NCBI GenBank assembly: GCA_963514005.1
Contig: OY740794.1
Span: forward strand, 20,894,001-20,958,000
DNA length: 64,000 bases
Direction of reading: 5' to 3'
Source: Raja brachyura
Taxonomy: Eukaryota
Shown here: in pieces, positions 12,530-59,306 of the stretch
Layout of the letters: the number at the start of each line of letters is the position of its first letter
Numbering within the stretch: the stretch's first letter is position 1
Notes under the pieces: generated by a model
Database searches by the model: none
Told to the model about the DNA's origin: nothing
What the model saw: only the letters and a program-made list of their open reading frames with translations
Position numbers and translations under genes: made by a program

Positions 12530-12990
12530 ACGGTAGAACTGCTGCCTTACACAGCGCCGGTGGCACGAGTTCGACCCCGACTACGGGAGCTGTCTGTACG
12601 GAGTTTGTACGTCCCCCCCCCCGTGATCTGCGTGGGTTTTCTGCGAGATCTTCGGTTTCCTCCCGCAGTCCAAAGACGTACAGGTTTGTAGGTTAATTGG
12701 CTTGATAAATGTAAACATTGTCCAGTATAAAATTGTCCAACTTCCAGTATAGTCCCTGTTGGACTCTTCGGAAGGTATAAGGTACAAGGTACAAGGTATA
12801 GAGTTAGCACGTTCTCCCTGTGACCGTGTGGGTTTTCTCCGGGCGCTCCGGTTTTTCCCACTCTCCAAAAACGTGCAGGTTTGTAGGTTAATGGCTTCTA
12901 TAAATAGTGTTAGTACATGGGGAACGCTGGTCGGCGAGGACTCGGTGAACCGAATGGCCTGTTTCCGCACTGTATCTCTAAAAGTCTAAA
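12530..12990 (+). mobile_element. Composite (tandem) V-SINE: head plus V-domain, (AAGGTAY)4 linker, second V-domain plus 3' tail
   Basis: The B-box is GAGTTCGACC (~12568). The V-domain occurs twice (~12600-12700 and ~12802-12895), each ending CAGGTTTGTAGGTTAAT. The tail is GGCCTGTTTCCGCACTGTATCTCTAAA. Confidence 0.8.
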
Positions 12991-42100: not shown

Positions 42101-42243
42101 ACACATAACAAAAACAGCGTCACTCTGCGTTTGTATTGAAGTCCCACTGGTAATAAACCGACAGATATATTTTATTATGTTGTTAACTTCTGCACATCGG
42201 AAATGAAATAAACATGCAATAACGATCCTTCTAAGGTACTGAC

Positions 42244-43390
42244 CTGTGTGAGTTCTTTTGTGGATCTTGAGATTTTCTGATCGAGCAAAGACTTTGCCGC
42301 AGCCGGGGAATGGGCAGGGAAAAGGTTTCTCGCCAGTGTGGACTCTGATGTGATTTACAAGTTTATATTTGGCTTTGAAAGGCTTTCCCTCTCTTGGACA
42401 CTCGTCCCAGAAACAGATATGGTTCGACTGCTCTGGTCCCCCTACGTGTTCCACAGTTACGTGAGTAACAAGTTCGTGCATCGTACTAAAAGTTTTTGAG
42501 CATGGTTTTTTAGTGACAGGGTCCGGCTCAGTCCACTTGCAGATCAGTTCCTGCTTGATAGGTTGCCTCATGTAGCGAAAGAAAGCACCTGGGCCGTGGT
42601 GGGCTGCTAGGTTCATGCCACCGTAGCTATGTAGAGGGGAAGAGGCAAAAGGATCACTCCTGGAACTTGCCACTTGGCTGTAGTGTTCAGACCTGGCGTA
42701 CATATCTCCAGGTAGCCCCAGTCTTAACTGTCCGTTCAGATGGTGTCCAGTTGGGGCTGGATGGGGAGTCTGATCATGGAGTCCTGGGAATAGAGAGTGG
42801 CTTCCAGCCTCGGGGTGACCATGGTGTCCGGGATAGCTACCTGTTGTTGATACAAACATTCCGTGGTGAGAACTCGTGCCAGGATATTGATCTGTGAGGC
42901 CAGGCATGACTGAGGATGTCAGATCTCTGCGGATGAGGAAGTCTCTACCTGCCGAGATAGCCTGGGCAGTATAGCTGGCGTGAGAGTGCGAGACCGAATA
43001 ACTGACTGCTGCTGCCGCCTGCGCTGGGCCATACGCTGCCGTTGGATTGGAGACAACATCAGCGTGGCCTGCCATATGATGGTGATGGTGGTGGTGGTGG
43101 TGGTGGTGGGGATGGGATGGGCTGAGTTTAAGTGCCGCGGCGGCTGCAGGGTGCCCCATGTGTTCAGGCCCGAATGGACTCGGCCCCAGGCGGGGTTCTC
43201 CAGTATTCTCCCCAGGGTGCGTGTGTGCCATTGAGTGGGGATGGCCGCTGAGCCCCGGGAAGCCTGTCATGCTCTGGGGGGGATGGTGATGATGATGATG
43301 GTGGTGCGCTCCTGCCAAGTCTACTAATCTCAGCGCTGGGTTTCGCTTGGCGAACGATGGGTCCACCATCGGACTCCCCAAAGCATCCAT
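42244..43390 (-). CDS. zic4: Zic4 coding exon 1: N-terminus with His tracts, ZF-NC region and C2H2 fingers 1-3
   Basis: The ORF runs [27 protein letters not shown]...[19 protein letters not shown]...HKRTHT and ends at a phase-1 donor G|GTCAGT (GT at 42243-42242). The N-terminus is of the Zic4/5 subgroup type, and head-to-head linkage with Zic1 identifies it as Zic4 rather than Zic5. The ORF-track tail (GQYLRR...) is intron read-through. Confidence 0.95.
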
Positions 43391-43445
43391 GCTTATAATG
43401 CCTGACTGCAGGAAAATAATAAAAGAAACTTTTTTTTTTCAAAAG

Positions 43446-43532
43446 TTACCGAACTTTGAAAACTCGCCCTTTGCCAACGTGGAAAGCCATTCGGTGTAGA
43501 GAGTGCAGACGGATGGCAGCAGCAGGAAGCAT
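43446..43532 (-). other. Zic4 upstream ORF (MLPAAAIRLHSLHRMAFHVGKGRVFKVR*)
   Basis: ATG at 43532, TAA at 43448-43446, ending 55 nt before the main ATG. Confidence 0.45.
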
Positions 43533-43534
43533 TG

Positions 43535-43775
43535 AGAAACTGAATTGAAATTCATGAACAGCTTTGTAGCCCGTCGGGCTCCGCGAGCAACACGCCATCT
43601 CATTGGTGAGTTCTCAATGATAGACAGTGCCAGTTACGGACCCCAGACGGGACACATGCGTATTACACCCGACCGATGTTTGATGGGGTGGCGGGGAGGG
43701 GGTGGGGGGCAGGGTAGGGCATTGGCAATGGGTAAGGGAGGGAGGGGGGGAGTTGAGGGGTGAATGGGAACATGG
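43535..43775 (-). promoter_or_regulatory. Probable Zic4 proximal promoter
   Basis: Minus-strand CCAAT boxes at 43606-43602 and 43725-43721, a YY1-like AGATGGCG (43600-43593), G-rich Sp/KLF-type tracts (43685-43770) and an Inr-like TCAGTT at 43543-43538. Confidence 0.6.
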
Positions 43776-46700
43776 AAAATTCTTTTTGGCTGAAGGGCGT
43801 GGGATTTTTCTGCTAGTTTCTTGAAACACACTAATTTTATTAAGGAAATCTGTAACCGTTTTCGTCTATTTCTGCTCTTCTAGGGGTAATCAGCTAAGGG
43901 AATAACAAAAGCTGTACATCTTTAAAAGTTGATCAGAGCGGGAGTTTTTTTTGTGAAAATATCATAAATAGCGAATATTTGCCGTTTGATACCTCCTTTC
44001 TGTGTTCACTTTTGCTAAAATCTGGTCGTTGCCGGGAGCTTTCGCCAACGATAAATTGAGAAGCATTTAGGATTCTGGTCTATATAAAGTATTCTCAACT
44101 ATGAAATTAAATTATGTGCGCTGATTATTAATCTGGATCTCACTTTAATTTAGAGAGATTAAAAGGGCAAATAAAGCAGGGATTCTGCATTGCTGCAGGA
44201 TTAAAAAAATAATAATATGAGGTGTTACAACTGTGTTTCTTTCACGGACAAATATACAGTTAGACGTGTAGGAAAGTTTACCCGGTGTCTGGGCCAGTCA
44301 AACACCAGTATCTGTTTTGCAATACCAAACACTGTGTCCCGCTCACCGCTGTACTGATCCACAGCAGATCCTGTGGTTTATGCAAGAATTTAGTTTTTGC
44401 GGGCAAGAAGGTTCGGCACTATACCTTAAAATGAGGTTATGGCCTGTTATACTCTGGCCGGATATTAGTTAGTGATTTTTTATCTTTCCTGACACTCGCA
44501 GACTGCCAGGCGTGTTATGTTTTTTTGACAAAATCAGACGGCTGGTGTTCTTAGCGGCACAGACGATCAAAGAGATTCCCAGTCAGAGGCATCTGTTAAC
44601 TTTTTTTTCTTCCCGAGACTGAGTATGAAACTTTCTCAGCATGTAATAACTTATTGAGTTCTCTTGCCCGCAGTCCCGGCTTGGTAATTCTGTAAGCTAG
44701 AGTCCAGGGAAAGTTTGGCTTTTCGAGGAGGATGTTGGATCGGACTTGAAGGTGGGAATGGGGGAGGGGGAGAGGGAATACTTCTATTTTCTTAGGCGTT
44801 GTATTTTTTTTAACCCCGGTCGGTACTGTTTTTCTACAGATTGGCAAGCGATTTGAATTACTGCCTACTTCACATGGATGCAAACGTGTTTCGTTTTAAA
44901 ACTAAACGTGTTTCCAATTCCAAAACTACAGCTTGCGAAGGCGATCCTAGACCGTGCTTCGAGATCCGCTTCACACAGCGTAATCCGCAAATAGGAAACC
45001 CGCATCGCTTGTGGTGGAAAAGAAAGTAAAGTGGAGAGTGTTGCGGGAGGCCCGCAGAAAGATAACGTGATGATAAATTACCGTGTGCTTGTATCTTTGC
45101 ACGGGCACACGTGAATGAAAGGCTTTTAAAGCGATCTCCCGTCTTCATATCAGCCTTACGATTTCATATATTTATTCTAATACCCGAACGCAATGCTGCT
45201 TACAATCCCTCCCCCAACATACAGTCTTATGCCTGCATCTGTAACTTGCTCTTAGTGCAGATCGTCTGTGTACGTCGCCTTGAGTACAGACGTCTGCCAT
45301 CTAAGTGAAAAGTAGTTTAGACTTTGATTTTTCAGAGAAGACCAGGGTGACAAAACGGGCTACTAACTCAAACATGTACGTTGTGGCTCCTCAGATTATT
45401 CACCAAGGGTACAAAAGGGGAACGGAAACCTAGTGCTGCGATATCCGTGGATTTAGGCCGTCGTTCTAAGCTGATCAACGGCAGGGCTTGAAGGCTGCAG
45501 TCTTGCTGCACACAGCAGACCTACAGTGCAAGAGAGAGAGAAAAAAAGGTAGGTTTTCAAAGGGAGGTGGGAGTTATAATGTGGAGAGAAATTTGTGGGG
45601 GCGGGGGTGGTGGTGGGAAGAAACAGAAATACCAAATTTAAGCTGGGAGAGAGATTAGAAGGAGAAAAGGCGTAAGCAACGTTATACGTGTTGGGAATGT
45701 ATCCAGAGAAACAAGGAAGAAAAAAATGGTTAAAAAGTATGATCAGATGAGAACACGTGGGGGAGGGATATAGGCATGGCGGTGGGGGGAAAAATCACAC
45801 AGTTGTTCAAACATTTCTCTTTAGTCATGGCAAATATGTTGAATATAATGAAAGATTTGCTCAATTTGTAAACACTAACCTTCAAAACGCAAGGAGGGCC
45901 AGGAAGATAATTCAGAAAAAAAATGTTATTAACGCATATTCACTGTCAAACAATGATTTCACATATGGGTATTAAAAGGCTTTGGAGTATCTCATGCAAT
46001 AATACTTGCACTACGGTGTATGCTTTATATTTATAAACAGCAAATATTTCAATAGTTGACGTTGTTATTTCTGTTAATTCACGTACTATTTGCATCTACC
46101 ATATTTTGACCATCAGGTGGAATCACAAAGCGGGTGAATAATCTATAGATTGTTGCGTGTTTTTATTTATCACCCAAAGAAAGCTCTGCTGTGCAACAGA
46201 GAAGGATGCAGTGTAGATCTGTGAATGCTGACACGTTTATACCTTAGCCTCTAGGGCTTCACACTGCAGGCTTAAAATGGGATTTGTACATGTGCGTCCG
46301 CATTACCTGATCGAGCCCCCACCTTAGTGTCCGTTTGCCTGCTGTCTTCCGAGCAATTGTTCAGCAGCAATTGTCAATTCCTAGAAAAGAATAGACTGCT
46401 TATGCATGTTTCAATATATAAATGTTTCCGTAAACGTAAATATACGAGAAACATACAAGTAAATTATAATGTTGAATTACATGTTCACATGTTGTCACTG
46501 TGGATACGTTATTCCACGTATGCATGCACTATTACACCTAAAGTATCGAGGGCTGCAAATTTTGCAGTATTGTTTCCTGTCTTTGAAGTAAAAAACACTA
46601 GACAGTAAGAATATTCCATTACGGTAGACTTTCAAATAAAAAAATAGTCAACGTGGGATATACTCTTCGCTAACGTTACTAATGCTACATAATAAATGCA

Positions 46701-49640
46701 TTTTAGCCAGATGAAACATTTTGTGCTTTACATTCAGTATAGGATATATTAGATATGGTGAGACGTGCACTCATACCTAACAATAAGGTTGAGGTGATTC
46801 AGTAATTCACTTTATTGTGTTATATCATTGATCCCTTCACACAATCATATGTTTTATTTCAAAAATAAAATGTAAACATCGCTAAATTATGTGAGATTTG
46901 CTTTTCTGGAAGAGAAGTGCAACATTTTCCCCAAATTGTCTAGAAATTAGAATGGTACTCTTATTTTCATTTCTTAGATTGTTTTCCAATGTGATTAAAA
47001 CATCACATAACAAAACGAGCTGGATTTTATATCCTCCTTATGATCGGCAGTTCACAGCTTCCTGTACCCCATTATAAACAGGAAATAATTTCAGAATTCC
47101 AGGTCTGTAGACTACAGGATCAACACTAAAGAAGTCCAACAGAGATGCCAAGGAACTTTGATTATACCTTTGTGTTGTATGAAAAACAGCGGAAAAAAGC
47201 ACTACGAGGAATGCAATAAATAGACATGGTACTCCGCATAGTTAAAACACAACTGAGCAGTGTAAATTCCAAATTATTTCCTCGCAGAATTGTATTTCGA
47301 AGAACACATTGGAAGGGAACAGATTAGGAAAATAATCTTTTTTGATAACATCTCGGTGGTGGCGTTATTTTGATGCAATTTGTTCATGTCCTTTTTGACC
47401 AAATTTGATATGAAAAGTAGCGAAAAATCTCGCTATTTTGGGTCCCAATATTCCATGCGTTATACTCATTTCTTTCAACCCATTCATTGAACGTTTAACG
47501 TAATGAAGAAGGAAATTCTTCATTCTCCTACAGTTTAATTCAGCTTGTTGCAAGTGCGTGAGTTGGTGCATGTTTGCAGTTTAAATCATAAGGTATAATC
47601 TAAGGATATCCTGATTGATATTGCCAATAAACACAATGGGCCCATTATATTTCTGGCAAAGGGCAATAGGTTGTGCATTAAATCACCCCCAAAAACTTAA
47701 AATCGAGCAACATGAAGCATTGGACAGCATTTTTAACAAGCAACATAATATGGGATAGTATGTCTAATAGCTAGGATTGACTGCGCACACTCAAGCTGTG
47801 AGTGGTTTACGTTAGTGATGTGCGGTGTTGGAATTCCGTGCCATTCTATCTTATCAAGATACATTTTGCAAATATTTAATTAAAGAAGTTTGATTATGAA
47901 GACGGGTATAACATGTTTTATGTGTAAAATATGCAAACTGTCCATGTTAAATAAAACCAGAATAATATTCCAGATTAATGAAAGTAGCAACTATAACATA
48001 CTGAATGATAGACACATCGTGGTTAATTAGCAACATCAGCGTGGTGCACTTTATACAGAAAGCAGAGTTACTTTTTTATCTTTGCTGCATTTTAAAATGA
48101 GATGTTTATCCTGTACTTGGCGTACATACGATGCTACATCCAGGCCCCACCCCCTTGTAACGGAGGATATTAATTTCATGTACCAATAAGTCTTAGACTT
48201 TTGTCTGGCTAATTATATTGTTGAAAATAATCTTCAAGCAGCACCAATTGATTGCATTGTTTGATTTTGCCTGAGCAATATATCAGTATCTCCGCCATAT
48301 CTGCTTTTCACGCGTCTTTTTGCAGACGTCCACTTTAAAAAAAACACAGTTAAACATTATCATAATACATTTCTTCTAATAACTGAAACAGTAAAAGCTA
48401 TAAAAGCAGAATCGAGGGAGTATAGTTGTTTTCGATGTATTTATAGACGAAAGAAAGCATTTGTTTCAAAATATGCTTTAGTTTCTCCGAAGGAGGCTAG
48501 GATGTAATAACAGGTTATCACCATGCTAGAGAAAAATGGGTGCTCTGTATACAGTTCTCATTACAGTTAAGATCACTAGTTGCACTTTTAATGTAGCTAC
48601 AATATAAACACACTACATATAAAATGCTAAATTATACGCGATTTTGAGAGAATTCAACATACTTTTCAATGTCGGAAACAGATACACGTGATTAGTTAAT
48701 TTACCCGCTGCGTTGACCGCGGAGAATAGATACCGTAGTCTATATCTCACCACAAGTTTATGACTGGAACTGATTAAGCAGCGATGGAAAGAAGCTAGAA
48801 ACCAGATAACTTGTACCATTACGATTGTATCTTTGTAAGCAAAGTTATACTATCTAAAGATATACCACACTTCCCATGTCTAAAATCGTCATCGCAATTC
48901 AGCAACTAATATCAGCACTCTTTTGCGAATTATATTGAAGTATTCCAAATTTATACCAAATTTAGAGAATCGATGCCTATGAATGTCTATAACTTGAAGG
49001 ATATACATTTTGGTATTGTTCTGAAAAATGTCCTTATACCTTTAACTGTAATCATGTCCACTAGCATTGCGTTGTATTCCTTTTTTGCAAACACAGAGCA
49101 ATTATGGAGAAAAAGATCTCCTCGTTCAAGTTGTTGCCGAATTACTGCTAACTTTACACTAAAAAATAGTCTTGGTGACACTAACCCGAAAATGCGTTTT
49201 GCTAACATTATCATTGTTAAATAGTGGTGATGCAGGAAAGCTTTATCTGGAATGAATCTGAGAATTATGGTTGTGGTTATACATTTATATGTAGATACCT
49301 GTAACGCCGATATTTAGGAAGATAGAAACCCACCAAGAAAACCAAAGCTCCACTCCAAAGATGGTCTAATATACTCTTCCAAATCACATTATATTCAAAT
49401 TATCCGTAAATGAACAAAATAATGCAACTGTCATGGAAAAATATGGAATCTACGTAGACTGGGTCGAAGGTTGTTGTTACAATACTATGGTCGTCAAATA
49501 TTAATACTGGTACTTTCAGGCAGGGTACATTGATCTACAGCAAACAGCTGCTTGCGGGATGTACTGTCACTAATTTATACAGTGAGCGACGACATAAAAC
49601 AATGTAAATGACCACGATTCAGACTGGAGGTCGAAAACGA

Positions 49641-50203
49641 NNNNNNNNNNNNNNNNNNNNNNNNNNNNNNNNNNNNNNNNNNNNNNNNNNNNNNNNNNNN
49701 NNNNNNNNNNNNNNNNNNNNNNNNNNNNNNNNNNNNNNNNNNNNNNNNNNNNNNNNNNNNNNNNNNNNNNNNNNNNNNNNNNNNNNNNNNNNNNNNNNNN
49801 NNNNNNNNNNNNNNNNNNNNNNNNNNNNNNNNNNNNNNNNNNNNNNNNNNNNNNNNNNNNNNNNNNNNNNNNNNNNNNNNNNNNNTGTTTTTTTNNNNNN
49901 NNNNNNNNNNNNNNNNNNNNNNNNNNNNNNNNNNNNNNNNNNNNNNNNNNNNNNNNNNNNNNNNNNNNNNNNNNNNNNNNNNNNNNNNNNNNNNNNNNNN
50001 NNNNNNNNNNNNNNNNNNNNNNNNNNNNNNNNNNNNNNNNNNNNNNNNNNNNNNNNNNNNNNNNNNNNNNNNNNNNNNNNNNNNNNNNNNNNNNNNNNNN
50101 NNNNNNNNNNNNNNNNNNNNNNNNNNNNNNNNNNNNNNNNNNNNNNNNNNNNNNNNNNNNNNNNNNNNNNNNNNNNNNNNNNNNNNNNNNNNNNNNNNNN
50201 NNN
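49641..50203. other. N-runs (masked simple repeats or gaps)
   Basis: N-runs lie at 4667-4861, 8602-8752, 10349-10498, 11109-11253, 11278-11504, 25148-25342, 26766-26924, 49641-49885 and 49895-50203. They vary in length and most abut TA, CA or TATC-like sequence. Confidence 0.8.
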
Positions 50204-53200
50204 CAGGCAACAGACAGACAGATTTGCGTTATGAGGACAACATTATTTTGTGTCAACAGCCTATCAAATGAACAAATTACTACTTAGTTTATTGTTGGTA
50301 TTTCATTGAAAGCGCGATAATACCAGAGAAAGATTTGAAAAATACCTTGATTAGTATAACACGCGGTTTCAATTGTAGTTATATTAATTCGAATTCTATG
50401 AATTATTCATTTTGCAAGCTTGCATCTTAGTGGCTCGGTTTCTATTTTTGATATAAGTTAGAAATTCGATGATGCTAAATGTCACGCCGGTACTGGAACT
50501 GGTTTTGTTCAGAGTTCGGCGTGTATTAAACAATGCCGAAGATATTCCACGAGCTGGCAATCATTGTTTTAAGTAAAGAACGTCAATTCAAAGGAAGTTT
50601 AAAAAAAAACTATGAGAAAATATCTATCATCTTTACAACATTTCGGGTTTTCTTTGGATGTCATTTCTTTCCACGTGTATGTAGGGGCGAGTAAAGGCGT
50701 GTATCAATTAAAAAAGTAACTAACCTGCAAAATGCTCATTGTCATATTTCGCCGTGAGTCTGCATTTCACTCCAAGGAGGAACCAGCAACTCTAGGGGAT
50801 GTTTTGACAACCAAATAAAAAGTCCAATCGTGGTAACTTTTTCTAACAAGGTTGCAGATAAATATATATTTATATTACTAAATAACTTTGCGGGCACGAA
50901 AGCTTCAATAAAGAAGTTAAGTTGAAACGTATAGGGCTGCATTTAGGGCTACAAGTGTTCATTCGGTAAATAATATTAGCAATGCATAATACACAGCGAA
51001 ATTACAGTTTGCCTTTCAATTTCTTTATGCCATTATTTTCTGCTACAACATTAGTATCGCAGTGGATATGATTGCTGAGCAAATGCAAGCTCCATTTGTT
51101 TTGAATAGTTCAAAAGCTACAAATGTAAAATGCATATTGCATACACATCTTTTTCCCCCCAAATAAATTATTTATCTACAAATTAGCACAGTGATCATAG
51201 CATATTGCTTATACCGTTATGATTTTAGGTATATATTGTTTATATATATATTAGGTATATATATATATTCTTTATATTAATAATCCTAACAACATCTTAT
51301 TTGCTACGTATATTTCAGTCAGTTCGTGTCGTAATTTCAATATCCTAGTGCTGAATAATCCTTACAATATCCTCCATAATGTCTACCCCTCCATTCACTC
51401 GTATTTCAAAAATGTTGGTAAATTTTCGGGAGCAACATAAAAGGATGTTGCGCCTTGTCGTGCATTAAGGTCATTTTTCAGTAACTATGAAAGATCGACA
51501 TCAACAAAGCGCACTGATTTCTAAAGTTATGTTTCCTTTCTATGTTCAAATACTCCAAACTCGCTCTTCTCGTAATTCAAGAATCTCCAGTTTTTAAGAC
51601 TTCGAGCACCCTTCAGCATCCATAGCTGAAGAATAAATTAAGAAAAAAAGGAAAGAATAAGTGATAAAGACCTGTTTTGTTTTTCAATCCCACATTGGAT
51701 TTTTTTAAAATCCCTTTGAATATCGTAATGTGAAATCCCTGTCTAATTGTAACTATACTAGAAATAATTCCAGAATATTGTAATAGATCTGCATGGACAA
51801 ATTATCCAATACACTTTTCGCACCTCCAACATCGATGCCATGCACAGATTTCAAGGCAGGCAGTCAGATAATGGGTAAAGCCAAGGGTGGCCTTCAAAGT
51901 TCTGCTTCCCGCCCCTAAACTAGCCCAGGCAACCTTCTGATAGCTGCAATTTTAATACAAAACTATCTGCTGAAAATCTCAATAACGTGGCCATTATCGA
52001 AAGTCTAATAACTCTGTCTAACTTCCAGCTTCTGGACGTTATTTTAAACAACAATTTGAAATTATATTGGACTTTACCCAGAAATCACCAGAATACCAGT
52101 TGAAAATTATCTTTGCTTTGATGACATTTTAGTTTAGTGCCAGTGTCCAAATCATACATATTTCCGGCTGCATGGTTATTAGTCTTTTTTTCCTCAAACA
52201 AAGCAAATAGATAGCAAGCAGATCACAGAAGCGCCAACGACTAAAATCCTGTTGTTTCGACTATTATGGATATACCTTATGCTAGTGTGGAAACATTAAA
52301 ACGTCAATGTGCATTCAATTTGATATTTTATATATAGAACAATTCCATATTGAACAATTGTTTTCCATTTCGACGTTTTAGTTCCAGGACAGCTAATATT
52401 TTTCGAAGGTATACATTATGTGGCATTGTGTGGCTTTGGCACATGTGGTCGGTCACGGGTCATGGGTCAAACGATATGGAATTTCAAAAGTCGGCGACTT
52501 CAGAGCTATCCTTGCGCGCAGAAGCCAACTGACTAACTTCATTTGAATCAGTTTTAATAGAGATAAGTATAATAAACGAAACGATAATACACTGGCTCAG
52601 GAATCAAACAATGCGATCAACTCGAAGAAATTCGGCCTCAGAAACATTCAAATTAACTTTGAAATAATTCTAATGTCCATTCCAATACTTGGAATATTTG
52701 CTTAGAGGAAGCAAGTAAACAATTATCAGTTCATTATCTTAGAATTCTAAAGCGTTTTGCTTGCAGGAAAAACACCGATAAATGACACGCGTTGACCGAC
52801 GCAATTGTTGAAGAGCTCTCTCACTTACTAGAACATACATTGGAACACAAAATAATTCTAGTTGCGAGTGTGGTTTATACGCGTAGCTGCGTTTTAAGGA
52901 CAGTAACAGTTAATACATGTTTGTCGCAAATAAGCGATTGAAAGATTAACTTCAAATTAGAAATCAAATTTCAGTTTTAAATTGAATTCATGGAATACAT
53001 CGAATTTTAAATCAAGTTAAAACAATTCCTTTTGTAAACTAGTACTTCAGCCTACAGACATATATCCCCCCCACCCCCGCTCCTCCCTTCATAGAACAAC
53101 CAAACGCTTTGCTATCCATCGACCGAAAACAATCCGAGGGATAATATCGGTACACACAAGTGCTTTCGAATGGAAATGCATAATTCAAAGCCACTCGCAC

Positions 53201-55509
53201 CTAGTTTTGCTTTTATTGGAACATGATGGCTCCTGACAAGGGCTATTCTGAGGAAACAAAAATCTGACTGATATCTCTATTCTCTTTTTAGTCAATTGCA
53301 TTTACATGAAAGATGATGGAAATTCAGGGGTCAGGAGTCGTTTAGTATAAGTCACTTGAATACACGTGCCTCTCTTACCGTCCGCCACCTGTTGAAGAAG
53401 ATGTCTTCGATCATTTAATTCAGGTAACTGAAGTTTAAAAAAAATCTACTTTGTAGCGGCAACTAGGTAGTCATTCTTCATTTCGCCTTTTCAAGGTTTC
53501 TGGAAGCAGTTAGGGAATGTATGATGAAGCAGAAATGAGCCGTCAGGATGATATTTTAATGGCTTATATGTCACGTCGGTGCATGCGGCTTTGAACTCAA
53601 GCAGCCTGCGTTTCCTGCGGAGAACGCCGCAAATCCCACTTGATAACTTCTACCATCCTTCAAATTTTAAAATCAGTCCTTCTTTGTATATTGGGAGAAG
53701 TAGTCTAAAGATAATGCTATGGGAAACGTTTACTTTTCATACTCCTAAAGTGTCCCTTTAGAATTTGCACACTCAATGAGCAGTAAATCTTTTTGAATCA
53801 AATTGCTCCAGCTTCTGCTTCTAGACTGCTGTGATTTTAATATCAATGTTATCAGTATATTGCATCATTTAAAGTAACGCTATGAGGCTAGCTATTGTAA
53901 TCACCCAGCAAGACAATATTATGTTCTACTTAAATCTTTAAGAACGCAGGATATCCAGTGCACAACCAAAGCAGATAAATAAGATTTCTTTTTGTGCACA
54001 AATATGGGACCTATCGCGTCAGAATAGTCAGTTTAACCACAATTAGTATCTTCTCATAAGGCAATTTTAGACCATTAAAGTACCTTAAAATTACACTAAT
54101 ACCCTATTCAATACCCACACCGGCCTCATGCTTTCAGCAAAGTAAGCACGTAGCCTCAAATTGTTGTAAATTGGAAACCCAAGTGGCATGCATTTTAATT
54201 TGTTTTTGCTATAAGCTCTTAGTGCGAACATTGTCGTCAGGCTCCTACCCCGTAATGATAAACATGCTTCCTTGAGCAACAGCGCTACTGTAAAATATCT
54301 ATAGAACTTCGCGGCCGAATAACGTCCTAAGGTGGTCAATTAAACGCCGGGCTTTCGCATACTCCATTACCTTCGCCCGAAATATTTTGTTCGAAGTTAA
54401 CCTCTTGTACTTTAACAGTGAATACTTTTTTTTTTAAGTGTTTGTTTGAAAAAAAAGCGAGCAAACGTGTTCGTGTAAACTGGGTAATCACAAAACAGAA
54501 TTGGAAAGAGCATAGATTGGGGGAAACAAGACAACTATTTGAAAGCAGTGCCCTTCCAAAGTGATGGTTTGCTAACGGAGATAATAGTTGAAGGATGCGG
54601 TAAGACCTCTTTGTTATAAAATAAGACTTTAACTCGGAGGTTTAGCTTCAAGGAAGTTCATTGAAGTGGTGAACAAAAGGTAAATTGAACGATTCCGATT
54701 CTTTGTTGGCTTTTTACGTTTCTATTACTTGAATGTAATTAGACTTAATGAATATGCAAACCGTTGGCCTCACTTTAAAAAAAAACTTTATAGGGACACA
54801 GTAAATAGACTTTCACAAATTTGGGGCAGCGGATCGGAAAGTGTAAACTAAAAGATGATGTGGTAAAAAGCTATATTTTCCTTTACTGACGATGTGCATA
54901 AACAATTTCCGCAGTCATTGTCCGCAATCAATGAAAAGCGCACCACTTTTTATACATAGAGGGGGAAATCCTTACTTCCAGCTATTCGGCGATTGTGTGA
55001 GGACCTATAGATATGTATAGAGCAATTCATCGTCACCGTAGTAAAAAAAAGGACCAAGCAAGATGTTTTCAATCGCCTTTTACATGTGGAAAGACAGGTT
55101 AATCAAGGGTTTCGTCTCGAAAACAACCGAGTGTTGTATGTTTGTACTGAATCCAAACATATGCATTTTCCTAACCCAATTCAATAGAGTGTTCTTTCTC
55201 TTTTTGCTCACTCATCTGGGTAAGTGAATTTTCACCGGCGATCAAAAAGCTACTGAACAACAAAGGAAGCCGCCCGCTTTTTTTCCTAGTCTGGAGTTGT
55301 GGCACATTAACGAATTTCAAACAGTCTGACAAGGGGTGACTGAATTGTGAAGTCGAAGAAGACAAGAGTTTTCTTCTGTTCTCTCTCCCACCCCCTTTCC
55401 CTCCTCCTCTTTCCATATTATATATATAAAAAAAAGGAGAGGGGAGAAAAAGAAAGAAAATGCGGACGGCAATAATTTATCAGGAGCGACTGTCACGGGT
55501 GCACAATAC

Positions 55510-55700
55510 CTGGGATTGATGAGGCGGGCGGGCCAATCAGGAGGCGGGATGTGCGCCCCAAGCTGGTGATTGGCACCAGGGCACAACGGGGCAGCGCCAG
55601 CCTGGCCAATGGGTGGAGACGCCGAGCGCCACGTGACTCCTCCCCCAACTCCCATTCATCAAGGGGACGGTGTTGTCTTTTCAATTCATTTATCTGCAGG
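55510..55700 (+). promoter_or_regulatory. Zic1 proximal promoter
   Basis: A GC/CpG-rich patch with GGCGGG boxes (~55523-55548), three CCAAT boxes (55533, reversed at 55569, 55606), the E-box CACGTGAC (55630) and an Inr-like TCATTT (55686), about 300-450 bp upstream of the ATG. Confidence 0.75.
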
Positions 55701-55701
55701 A

Positions 55702-55749
55702 ATGATTGCCGCTATCATTCTCGAGCTCACCGCCCGGCTGATGAGGTGA
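55702..55749 (+). other. Zic1 upstream ORF 1 (MIAAIILELTARLMR*)
   Basis: ATG at 55702 with G at -3, TGA at 55747-55749, out of frame with the main CDS. Translation is not shown. Confidence 0.55.
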
Positions 55750-55791
55750 AAGTTTCTCCCCAGGAAGATAAACCGCAAAAGACAATATTGC

Positions 55792-55830
55792 ATGATTTGC
55801 GTTTGCAGAGGGGGAAAATATCTTCAGTAA
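55792..55830 (+). other. Zic1 upstream ORF 2 (MICVCRGGKYLQ*)
   Basis: ATG at 55792 in weak context, TAA at 55828-55830, in the same frame as uORF1. Confidence 0.4.
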
Positions 55831-55993
55831 ATTCCCACACGCTGAAGAGAGAGAAGAGAGAAAAATAAGGAGTTTTTGCAAGTCCTGCAGACAGACTCAG
55901 AGACTATTTTATATTAAGCAAGTTTCGTTGTGAATTGTTTGTAGTTTGCCTTTCTATATATTATTATTCACTTTCTACCCCCATCGCCAGACG

Positions 55994-56969
55994 ATGCTTC
56001 TGGACGCTGGACCTCAATATCCTACTCTAGGAGTGACTACCTTCGGATCATCCCGACATCACTCAACAGGCGATGTCAACGACCGAGAAGTGGGACTGGG
56101 GATAAATCCTTTCGCTGACGGGATGGGTGCGTTTAAAATCAGCCCCAGCACTCACGATCTCGCATCGGGTCAAACTGCCTTCACGTCGCAGGCACCAGGC
56201 TACGCCGCGGCTCTGGGTCACCACCCCGGCCATGTGAGTTCGTACAGCAGCGCTGCTTTCAACTCGACCCGGGACTTCTTGTTTCGCAATCGGGGCTTTG
56301 GGGAAGCGGCGGCGGCAAGTGCCGGTCACAGCCTCTTCGCTTCGGCCGCGGCTGCGGGCAGTTTTGCCGGACCCCATGGACATACCGACGCTGCGGGGCA
56401 TCTACTCTTCCCGGGGCTTCACGAGCAGGCGACGACCCACGCTTCTCCAAATGCACATGTAATGAACGGGCAAATGCGCTTAGGCTTTTCTGGGGACATG
56501 TATGGCAGAGCAGACCAATACAGCCAGGTCACTAGTCCCAGATCGGACCACTACGCCTCGACCCAGCTACACAGTTATGGTCCCATGAACATGAACATGG
56601 CGGCCCACCATGGGGCCGGGGCCTTCTTTCGTTATATGAGGCAGCCCATAAAGCAAGAACTGATATGTAAATGGATAGAGCCCGAACAGTTGACGAATCC
56701 TAAAAAATCATGCAACAAAACTTTTAGCACGATGCACGAACTAGTTACTCACGTAACTGTGGAACACGTAGGGGGACCAGAACAGTCGAACCATATCTGC
56801 TTCTGGGAAGAGTGTTCAAGAGAGGGAAAGCCTTTCAAAGCCAAATATAAACTTGTAAATCACATCAGAGTCCACACTGGCGAGAAACCTTTTCCCTGCC
56901 CATTCCCCGGCTGCGGCAAAGTCTTTGCTCGATCAGAAAATCTCAAGATCCACAAAAGAACTCACACAG
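55994..56969 (+). CDS. zic1: Zic1 coding exon 1: ZOC box, ZF-NC region and fingers 1-3
   Basis: The ATG at 55994 gives [23 protein letters not shown]...[14 protein letters not shown]..., a typical ZIC1 N-terminus. The phase-1 donor is G|GTATGG at 56970. Confidence 0.97.
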
Positions 56970-58412
56970 GTATGGAGAATTATTTTAAAAAATCAAGAAG
57001 AAGTGAAATATTACCGAGCGTTTATAATCGTTTCTATCATATTAATAAACAGGTCTTCCAGATTATTTATTCAGTAACAATTTTAACAATACATATGCAA
57101 ATAAATATCATGTCAGAATAAAATTCACATGTTTAGCACTTTGATGTTCCTTAACTCTTGATGTTCCTTGTTGTGGCTGCGGTGCTTTAAACAATAAGAA
57201 AAATATATATTTACCGCGGTTCCACGTCATGAAATGCTATACTTAAAAATAAAATTCAAGTAGAATCAGTTTACCTAATATACGTCGTAGTAGAGTTTAT
57301 TTTTAATTTAATTGTCAATTTTATCTAAACATGATAATACATTTGGTTGCTTGGTTTCGTTGGAAATTCACACCCGAAAGAGCATATGCATGTTTTTTTT
57401 CACTCCCTTTAGTTTGGTTTCTTTATTGATAGTAATTATTTTACACATATATATGTTAGTGGATTACATAAAGCCTCGAAATCAACTTTCGTCGATACAA
57501 ACTTCTATTCATGTAAATATATTTGCACGTAAATATTATGTGCGTGTTTGTATATGTGTACGAGCGCGATCCGAGTATATATGGGTATAATATATTCCCA
57601 CTGTGATGCATACATATTGGGATCTTCCCGGGTTTATCGTCTTGTTAAAACTTGGTTTACAGTGTGTTTGTGAAAAAAAAAATGCACTCGACAACAATGT
57701 CCATGTTAGTGGCACATAATGGCGAGGTTGTTGTAAAGATTTAGCAAAGTCGAGATTTAACATTTTCTCGACTGCAAAACCACCAGGGGCACTTAACAAC
57801 AATTCACTTCACTGCATGAGATGTCCACTAACTCTTATTTTAAATAAACAGAAGTGGAAACGGTTTAATTAAAGCGAAAATGCAAATAGAATTAGCAAAT
57901 AATCATTTCCGTTGTCTGTTTAAAATGCTATTTCAGCATTTGCGTTCCAAAGGCTGTATTAGACTATTAGCGAAGCTCTGCTTGTGTCAGGGACAATCAA
58001 TGTTTTAAATAAGAATTTGAATCCAAAAACTAGTCAGGTACCTATTTTCAACTTTATTTGAGATATTATTGCAATTAAAACAAAACAATTACTCGTGGGC
58101 ATATATGCATGTAAGGCCGCTACGGCAGCTGCAATGTCTTGTAACTAGTCAGTGTCGATAATATAAATTAAGTAAACGATGAACATTATTAATCTGTGAT
58201 TCATCCGCCATAAAATTCTAAACAGTGAGGATGGGGACATAATCTAATCATGCTGCAGATATTTAGGAGACGTGAGGCATAGTTGAAAAAATCGTGAGGC
58301 AGGGGGATCCAAAATACGTATTTGTTTTCATGATGGCTGCTTTTCTTTGTTTTTTAAAAAATAAGTTTAGTACTTTTGTATGTACACTCACGCACATACC
58401 CGGTCACACAGG

Positions 58413-58510: not shown

Positions 58511-58792
<282 letters not shown>

Positions 58793-59108: not shown

Positions 59109-59306
59109 GTCCACGAAGCAGCCTCTCAAGGGTCACAGCCTTCTCCTGCGGCAAGTTCTGGCTACGAATCCTCAACACCCCCTACCATCGTGTCGCCCTC
59201 TACAGAAAACCAGACCAACAGTTCAATGTCCCCGACATCATCTGCAGTTCACCACACATCCAACCACAGCACGCTCTCGTCGAACTTTAACGAATGGTAC
59301 GTTTAA
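59109..59306 (+). CDS. zic1: Zic1 coding exon 3: C-terminus ending NFNEWYV
   Basis: The acceptor is TTTTTGTAG|GTC CAC. Manual translation gives [65 protein letters not shown], a frame missed by the ORF track. The total CDS is 1338 nt, giving 445 aa. Confidence 0.96.

Follow-up and report, generated by a model that had tools for sequence, protein, structure and literature searches.

The 64,000-nucleotide stretch of Raja brachyura contig OY740794.1 analysed here (positions 20,894,001 to 20,958,000; hereafter the window) carries the genes of two zinc-finger transcription factors, Zic1 and Zic4, which lie head to head with Zic4 on the minus strand and Zic1 on the plus strand. The genome contains six Zic genes in three such head-to-head pairs of similar spacing (12-14 kb). 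The pair in the window joins a subclass A member to a subclass B member, as the best matching proteins are Zic1 and Zic4, the sequences flanking the tract described below fall into the two subclasses, and the arrangement is a divergent tandem one. The tandem duplication that gave rise to subclass A (Zic1/2/3) and subclass B (Zic4/5/6) is placed before the vertebrate genome duplications in the relevant parts of PMC7403390 and PMC6175831. Within this ancient pair the ends of the two first coding exons are nearly identical at the nucleotide level, and it is the origin of this tract that is considered here.

The Zic1-Zic4 locus and its near-identical tract

The features of the locus are as follows.

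38664..39100, minus strand: Zic4 coding exon 2, fingers 4-5 and C-terminus, not homogenised with Zic1
42242..42496, minus strand: homogenised tract, Zic4 arm, at the end of exon 1 (last 84 codons, split Gly base, GT donor)
42242..42396, minus strand: perfect core in Zic4, 155 bases, from the alignment
42244..43390, minus strand: Zic4 coding exon 1, subclass B, 94% to Scyliorhinus Zic4 and 97-99% to skate Zic4 proteins
42497..56716, no strand: loop between the arms, 14.2 kb, with both N-terminal coding halves and the common upstream region
55994..56969, plus strand: Zic1 coding exon 1, subclass A, 99% to Leucoraja Zic1
56717..56971, plus strand: homogenised tract, Zic1 arm, at the end of exon 1 (last 84 codons, split Gly base, GT donor)
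56717..56816, plus strand: older 5' segment with all six mismatches, ending at the Ser/Pro site 56816; partner 42496-42397
56817..56971, plus strand: perfect core in Zic1, 155 bases, with the helix of finger 2, finger 3 and the donor; partner 42396-42242
58545..58708, plus strand: Zic1 coding exon 2, fingers 4-5, not homogenised with Zic4
59109..59306, plus strand: Zic1 coding exon 3, from protein comparison

The start codon of Zic4 was taken from the open frame; named shark proteins start two codons earlier. Over its whole length the Zic1 arm (56717-56971) is identical to the inverted Zic4 arm (42496-42242) at 249 of 255 bases, the last 155 of which are all identical. An earlier interpretation, made from the sequence alone and referred to here as the sequence-only reading, had reported 247 identities in 253 positions for the reverse complement of 42244-42496 against 56717-56969, and realignment returned exactly this value. 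Its list of mismatches also proved correct, with four silent differences (56728, 56743, 56782 and 56800) and two that change the residue (Glu/Asp at 56809 and Ser/Pro at 56816), as did the unbroken identity of 56817-56971 with 42396-42242 through the GT donor, directly after which the introns diverge. Outside the tract, blocks in which the two genes encode the same protein have diverged at 11 of 19 codons immediately upstream and at 12 of 25 codons within exon 2, the same counts as in the sequence-only reading; the exon 2 block retains 62 of 75 identical bases, with a longest run of 20. The statement that fingers 1-3 are homogenised holds for fingers 2 and 3, which lie wholly within the tract, but for only the second half of finger 1, the finger boundaries being taken from the Cys/His pattern.

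The two arms form the longest inverted repeat within the 64-kb window. No near-identical third copy of the tract was present among the 5 places returned by a DNA search of the genome, nor do Zic1 and Zic4 share near-identical homology outside the tract, their remaining coding parts being only ordinarily similar and their introns and the loop unrelated. A 38-base inverted match (82%) between 38881-38918 in Zic4 exon 2 and 59142-59179 in Zic1 exon 3 corresponds to a short conserved C-terminal motif and is ordinary coding similarity. Upstream of Zic1, window positions 53306-53426 resemble (79-85%, with a change of frame) the extra N-terminal part of a Zic1 protein predicted for Callorhinchus; judged by its sequence, this segment would be a conserved upstream element or a non-coding exon rather than coding.

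Comparison with other genes, lineages and sequencing runs

The duplication is far older than the tract, as silent sites are saturated upstream (69/112) and in exon 2, and the subclass trees agree. Within the tract, Zic1 and Zic4 differ silently at only 4 of the 82 codons that encode the same residue, while the other 14 pairs of Zic genes differ at 38-56% of theirs. The same 84 codons show 41/77 silent differences in the linked pair Zic2/Zic5 and 30/66 in Zic3/Zic6, so that the homogenisation that might have been expected of these sister pairs is not found here. Unlinked Zic1 and Zic2, whose proteins are nearly the same in this region, also differ silently at 41 of 80 codons. The difference between the tract (4/82) and its flanks (39/69) is highly significant (Fisher p = 8e-13), and when 123 codons with silent polymorphism among the six Zic genes were permuted in a Sawyer-type test, the Zic1/Zic4 run of 37 was reached by none of 20,000 shuffles, the other 14 pairs yielding runs of 3-8 (p >= 0.10). 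The excess identity is thus local, restricted to the block in which both genes encode the same protein and exceeding both the flanks and chance, which is the pattern that conversion produces.

It could be argued that a conserved DNA-binding domain in closely linked genes is enough to generate such a tract. A broader homeobox control was drawn from 60 of the 148 homeobox matches of the genome, comprising Hox clusters, Dlx, Hmx, Nkx, ParaHox and Six genes named from their translations (one locus, L137, yielded no pairs). The lowest silent difference was 0.43 in 169 linked pairs and 0.33 in 837 unlinked pairs, and the longest identical run was 32 bases. As these controls never approached the Zic1/Zic4 value, protein identity and linkage alone are insufficient to explain the tract.

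Sequences from outside the genome were sought in metagenome contigs, in which 80 of 259 scan stretches were kept and 51 of those translated. Two of the 51 were vertebrate-like, namely L011, classed by its protein as a teleost Zic4, and L061, which resembles Zic5; no Zic sequences were found in viral contigs, GTDB genomes or plasmids. The trees, which hold 7, 7 and 8 sequences, have L011 as the sole Zic4 from outside the genome. In the tree of upstream exon 1, subclasses A and B separate with an ultrafast bootstrap (UFBoot) of 100 and Zic4 groups with its teleost-like orthologue at 93, and in the exon 2 tree the subclasses separate at 97. In the tract tree, Zic1 and Zic4 are joined at UFBoot 98 and L011 stands outside the pair. 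The prediction that Zic1 and Zic4 of one species should cluster in the tract only was thus borne out against this single outside Zic4. Zic3 and Zic6 (contig C13) also group in the tract tree (UFBoot 93), contrary to the subclass split; they have Gly4, Ser5, Ala11, Leu13 and Ile47 in common, and the GC content at third codon positions (GC3) is about 0.73 in both. This grouping may reflect an older conversion or a compositional artefact. With regard to the splice site adjoining the tract, the intron 1 donor of Zic4, GTCAGT at 42243-42238, also occurs in Zic6 and in the teleost-like subclass B contigs L011 and L061, and the start of the donor differs from this motif in Zic1, Zic2, Zic3 and Zic5 of the same genome. 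The Zic4 donor has retained its gene identity directly beside the tract.

Evidence that both copies exist was obtained from contigs assembled from sequencing runs, in which the shallower of two similar paths may be dropped by the assembler. In run X7, from organism C and a separate study, a Zic1 flank of depth 8.5 and a Zic4 flank of depth 4 enter one 228-base record of depth 13.5. The Zic4 flank has 6 other letters, the number that separates the two genes of the window there, and the Zic4 intron exits at 56971. In run X12 (organism D) both flanks and both introns are attached to one shared record. The X12 graph forks one base before the T of the donor, with a depth of 130 on the branch that fits Zic4 exon 2 (Zic4 exon 2 begins with GT and Zic1 exon 2 with GG), from which we infer that X12 is RNA, despite the run's own label of 'probably DNA', and that both transcripts carry the tract. 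The shared 228-base record is contig-level evidence and does not prove a longer tract in these organisms. In run X10, from another sample under the organism label of the best-matching run, Zic4-type letters are present at 42397, 42404, 42413 and 42431; indeed, such letters occur in reads at all six mismatch sites (by count in record 6 of X7, and in records 2 and 3 of X10). As two-copy graphs are seen in both X7 and X12, where both genes enter one tract, the tract is not an assembly error, the first of the two circumstances in which the proposal of conversion would have failed. Of the remaining runs, X17 and X20 cover the upstream exon of Zic4 only and X3 supplies only a Zic6-like contig. At window position 42404, Asp-type and Glu-type letters are both found in one sample (X10), and the Glu/Asp change in Zic4 may be polymorphic.

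Proposed conversion, its age and the alternatives

We propose, with a probability of about 0.82, that repeated ectopic (interlocus) gene conversion between the two inverted exon 1 ends, 14.2 kb apart, left this tract behind. That conversion in some form lies behind the tract is very likely. The tract statistics, the permutation, the trees and the saturation of unlinked paralogues all support the view, already taken in the sequence-only reading, that these inverted ancient paralogues have been converted. Mechanistically, a germ-line break in one arm would be repaired from the other arm, either on the same chromatid folded back or on the sister or homologue, without crossover, and the long run of identical protein would keep homology high enough for conversion to restart. 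Conversion needs a minimum of 100-200 bases of homology; the exon 2 block may have escaped by being too short and too diverged for capture. The limits of the tract would be those of usable homology, set by insertions, deletions and changed residues 5' of 56717 and by unrelated introns 3' of the donor. Conversions that overwrote gene-specific residues or donors would probably be purged by selection, as would a crossover in the tract, which would invert the loop with both promoters and N-terminal halves and create chimeras of subclasses A and B. Under repeated conversion, fingers 2-3 of both factors likely evolve as one sequence while the N-termini, fingers 4-5 and the C-termini diverge.

The tract is not uniform in age. 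All six mismatches lie within its 5' 100 bases, and a clean run of 153 bases arises in only 2.4% of random placements (p = 0.024). The 5' part has accumulated a silent divergence of 0.20, against 0 at the roughly 33 silent sites of the core (upper 95% bound about 0.09). Ser at 56816 is common to the Zic1 proteins of Leucoraja and Mobula/Hypanus, and Pro occupies this site in Heptranchias and Callorhinchus Zic1 and in 12 of the 12 chondrichthyan Zic4 proteins compared. The sharing of Ser by skate and stingray Zic1 indicates that the site has not been overwritten since these lineages split, roughly 200 million years ago. By contrast, Asp at 56809 occurs in none of the 12 chondrichthyan Zic4 proteins and is thus recent. 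At 56728, X12 has the Zic1 letter in both genes, so that this difference is either recent or has been erased in the organism sampled. For the core, the bound of 0.09 is similar to the divergence from organism D, which makes its last homogenisation recent on that scale. These data bear out the suggestion of the sequence-only reading that tracts of different age are superimposed, but its description of conversion as ongoing could at most fit the 155-base core, and there only in the sense of recent on the scale of skate speciation; the 5' 100 bases appear long unconverted. The core was probably last homogenised within a few multiples of the time since this skate and its close relatives parted; for the 5' 100 bases, the latest sweep probably dates from around the divergence of skates and stingrays. 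In X10, a contig of depth 3 runs from a Zic1 flank into sequence with Zic4-type letters at three sites and Glu at a fourth (inferred from 7 other letters). This is a weak hint of ongoing conversion that is explained equally well or better by a chimeric join over the shared 38 bases 56743-56782. A selected barrier at the Ser/Pro site, comparable to the divergence peaks described in part of PMC3924837, was considered and set aside; the layout fits, but residue 34 varies freely among Zic proteins.

Several observations weigh against repeated conversion. No species-private substitution can be demonstrated in both copies, and the two core changes in X12 described below may be confined to Zic1. The tract tree has no Zic1 from outside the genome and just the one Zic4. 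GC3 is 0.45 in the tract, below the 0.53-0.66 of the flanks of both genes, which provides no sign of GC-biased conversion and counts against a high conversion rate; a raised GC content, a common mark of conversion according to PMC2720389, is not a defining one. Homogenisation stops at the GT, zero bases into either intron, unlike in Capitella Dlx and mammalian pairs. In X15 (organism E), Zic1 contigs cross both ends of the tract unbranched and a Zic4 contig is absent, at a depth of about 4 and with filtered records. Finally, the silent divergence of L011 from the Zic4 of the window increases gradually over exon 1 and has reached 0.52 in the 45 codons that precede the tract, so that L011 was set aside as an unsafe guide to which gene was copied. 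CpG content, GC3 and a tree node with a support of 60 lean weakly to Zic4 as the donor.

The alternative that survives best, although improbable, is a single old conversion in an early cartilaginous fish, followed by slow evolution or nucleotide constraint with nothing recent. It would accommodate the invariance of the Zic4 tract protein in 12/12 chondrichthyan proteins, the slow evolution of skate exons (X15 lists a single difference over about 600 exon bases) and the age of the Ser/Pro difference. A single event does not readily explain why silent divergence is 0.20 in the 5' segment and 0 at the roughly 33 sites of the core, with a clean run of p = 0.024, and the core does change between skate-like organisms, as X12 shows. 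A little less probable still is conversion templated by RNA or complementary DNA (cDNA) instead of the neighbouring arm, which is suggested by the precise end of the identity at the exon end. The same limit would be expected of a DNA template, given that the introns lack homology; a spliced template would include exon 2, yet exon 2 is not homogenised, and only the linked partner is affected, unlinked Zic2 and Zic5 with nearly the same protein having remained distinct.

Purifying selection since the duplication on a nucleotide element such as an exonic enhancer, a splice signal or an RNA structure, with no exchange between the genes, is very improbable. Zic loci are described as rich in conserved regulatory elements in part of PMC6175831, and constraint appears to occur elsewhere in this exon, the first 140 Zic4 codons being unusually alike between skate and L011. 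Specifically, codons 2-142 (43390-42970) show 7-15 silent differences in 40 codons against L011, versus 19-25 near the fingers; from these sequence comparisons, the 5' end of the Zic4 exon is possibly under nucleotide-level constraint. In the tract itself, L011 differs from the Zic4 of the window at 48 of 252 bases and 44 of 79 silent sites, and at 23 of 29 fourfold codons versus 32 of 78 upstream. An ultraconserved exonic element would carry the same letters in distant species, which was not the case in the one distant species compared. The core also varies between skate-like organisms, with C>T at 56899 and 56905 in X12, or 2 changes in about 33 silent sites (0.06). Introns in X12 differ by 5 letters and one gap in 236 bases and by 3 of 30 bases, so that the core does not change at a lower rate. 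The saturation of L011 in the tract, together with the core changes in X12, indicates that the tract is not frozen by selection, as judged from one distant species and one closely related run. The second circumstance that would have told against conversion, invariance across distant species and unlinked paralogues, is thus contradicted by L011 and by the other four Zic genes, which are likewise saturated. Consistent with the absence of a structured RNA element, there was no folding signal in the tract (z = -0.39) and no match to an Rfam family.

Reciprocal exchange, in which the arms would be swapped and homogenised through paired crossovers or recurrent inversion of the 14-kb loop, is scarcely credible. 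Inverted arms make crossovers possible, and low-depth X10 contigs do join the flank of one gene to letters of the other. Swaps, however, relocate differences and never erase them, the X10 joins are typical of an assembler working over a shared stretch at depth 3-4, and no subclass chimera occurred among the 220 proteins that carry both markers, drawn from 371 sequences that are annotated and partly redundant. An assembly or polishing artefact in which one copy was overwritten by the other, left conceivable by the contig-level nature of the read evidence, is largely refuted by the two-copy graphs of other organisms and studies (X7, with 13.5 in the shared record against 8.5 and 4 in the flanks, and X12) and by the Zic4-type letters in reads at all six mismatch sites.

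As to the breadth of the repeated conversion proposed here, the number of residues that separates the tract proteins of Zic1 and Zic4 within a species is 1-2 in batoids, 0-3 in amphibians and 6 in two teleosts, compared with 5-7 for chondrichthyan Zic2 and Zic5. In birds and lizards the Zic1 and Zic4 tract proteins frequently show no difference at all. Chimaera Zic1 carries Thr24, and no chimaera Zic4 protein was found in the protein search. On protein sequence, this pattern may fit a pair that is homogenised in cartilaginous fishes and has escaped in ray-finned ones, although the shared sequence is also that of amniote Zic1 and may be ancestral. It is doubtful, though worth stating, that Zic1 and Zic4 have exchanged sequence without a break since the pre-vertebrate duplication, that Zic2/5, Zic3/6 and most bony vertebrates escaped but not the cartilaginous fishes, and that converted alleles still segregate in skates.

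Two further observations concern the genome and the window at large. Three Hox clusters (contigs C2, C7 and C34) were recognized among 150 of 366 candidates scored, with no fourth, a search that cannot show absence; HoxC is reduced in elasmobranchs, and the result is in line with this. Dispersed inverted repeats at 192-294, 12629-12847, 18165-18355 and 30205-30260 (53-73 bases, 71-82%) look like copies of interspersed elements.

Known systems and the meaning of the tract

The closest known case is that of Dlxa and Dlxb in the annelid Capitella teleta (PMC3199776). In the relevant sections of that paper, these are closely linked, inverted paralogues of developmental transcription factors that diverge elsewhere and whose DNA-binding domain holds a tract of some 150 bases without a rise in GC, as in the Zic pair. 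The Capitella genes differ in being tail to tail, encoding homeobox proteins and having a tract that enters the intron, whereas the vertebrate Zic genes are head to head, encode C2H2 proteins and have a tract that stops at the donor; further, unlike the Dlx duplicates, those of Zic1/Zic4 predate the vertebrate genome duplications. In mammals, BMP8A/B, DDX19A/B and TUBG1/2 are described, in the portions of PMC2720389 concerned, as linked copies that are long-term mosaics of concerted and divergent evolution, BMP8A/B being inverted. Those duplicates are about 100 million years old and their tracts consist of two exons and an intron, while in the far older and distinct Zic subclasses only part of one exon is involved; identity above 97% over two exons and an intron, as in the BMP8A/B type, was not found in the window, as there is no intron homology.

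Lefty bi-gene clusters also constitute a vertebrate developmental pair, whose lineage-wise clustering in mammals and in sharks, rays and chimaeras is read as conversion in part of PMC12344233. There the signal covers the whole protein and is inseparable from independent duplication, whereas in Zic1/Zic4 the flanks prove old paralogy and the tract is sharp and smaller than an exon. Amphioxus Pax3/7a and Pax3/7b resemble the Zic pair in having identical DNA-binding domains, strong nucleotide conservation and divergent linkers, but they stem from a younger, lineage-specific duplication for which conversion is named as a possibility only in the section seen of PMC6010424. Two other papers, PMC2724270 and PMC13431155, deal with other genes in the parts consulted. 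Reportedly, the hexapod engrailed/invected genes treated by Peel et al. in 2006 are an old linked insect homeobox pair with a concerted DNA-binding region.

No report of Zic1/Zic4 conversion was found in the full-text literature searched, which excludes most subscription papers, among them the main papers on Zic evolution, and supplementary gene lists. The process is known from other gene pairs and limits the interest of the finding to that extent, but the Zic1/Zic4 case is apparently undescribed. What sets it apart is how old and functionally divergent its partners are, together with two escaped sister pairs that serve as built-in controls. Conversion has been little regarded in vertebrate developmental evolution, according to the part of a 2024 review (PMC12344233) that addresses it.

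Zic1 and Zic4 are textbook ancient paralogues, and their zinc-finger domain serves for family trees and for probes. If part of this domain has been copied between the genes, trees, silent-site dates and ancestral reconstructions built on it would be in error for cartilaginous fishes, and no probe, primer or short read within the tract could separate Zic1 from Zic4. The locus would also offer a natural test of how long conversion lasts and how it ends, with three sister pairs of equal age, of which two have escaped and one is still homogenised, the latter combining a recent core with an ageing segment. Were the exchange to prove unbroken, it would represent about 500 million years of concerted evolution, in which half of the DNA-binding domains of two distinct factors had been locked together.

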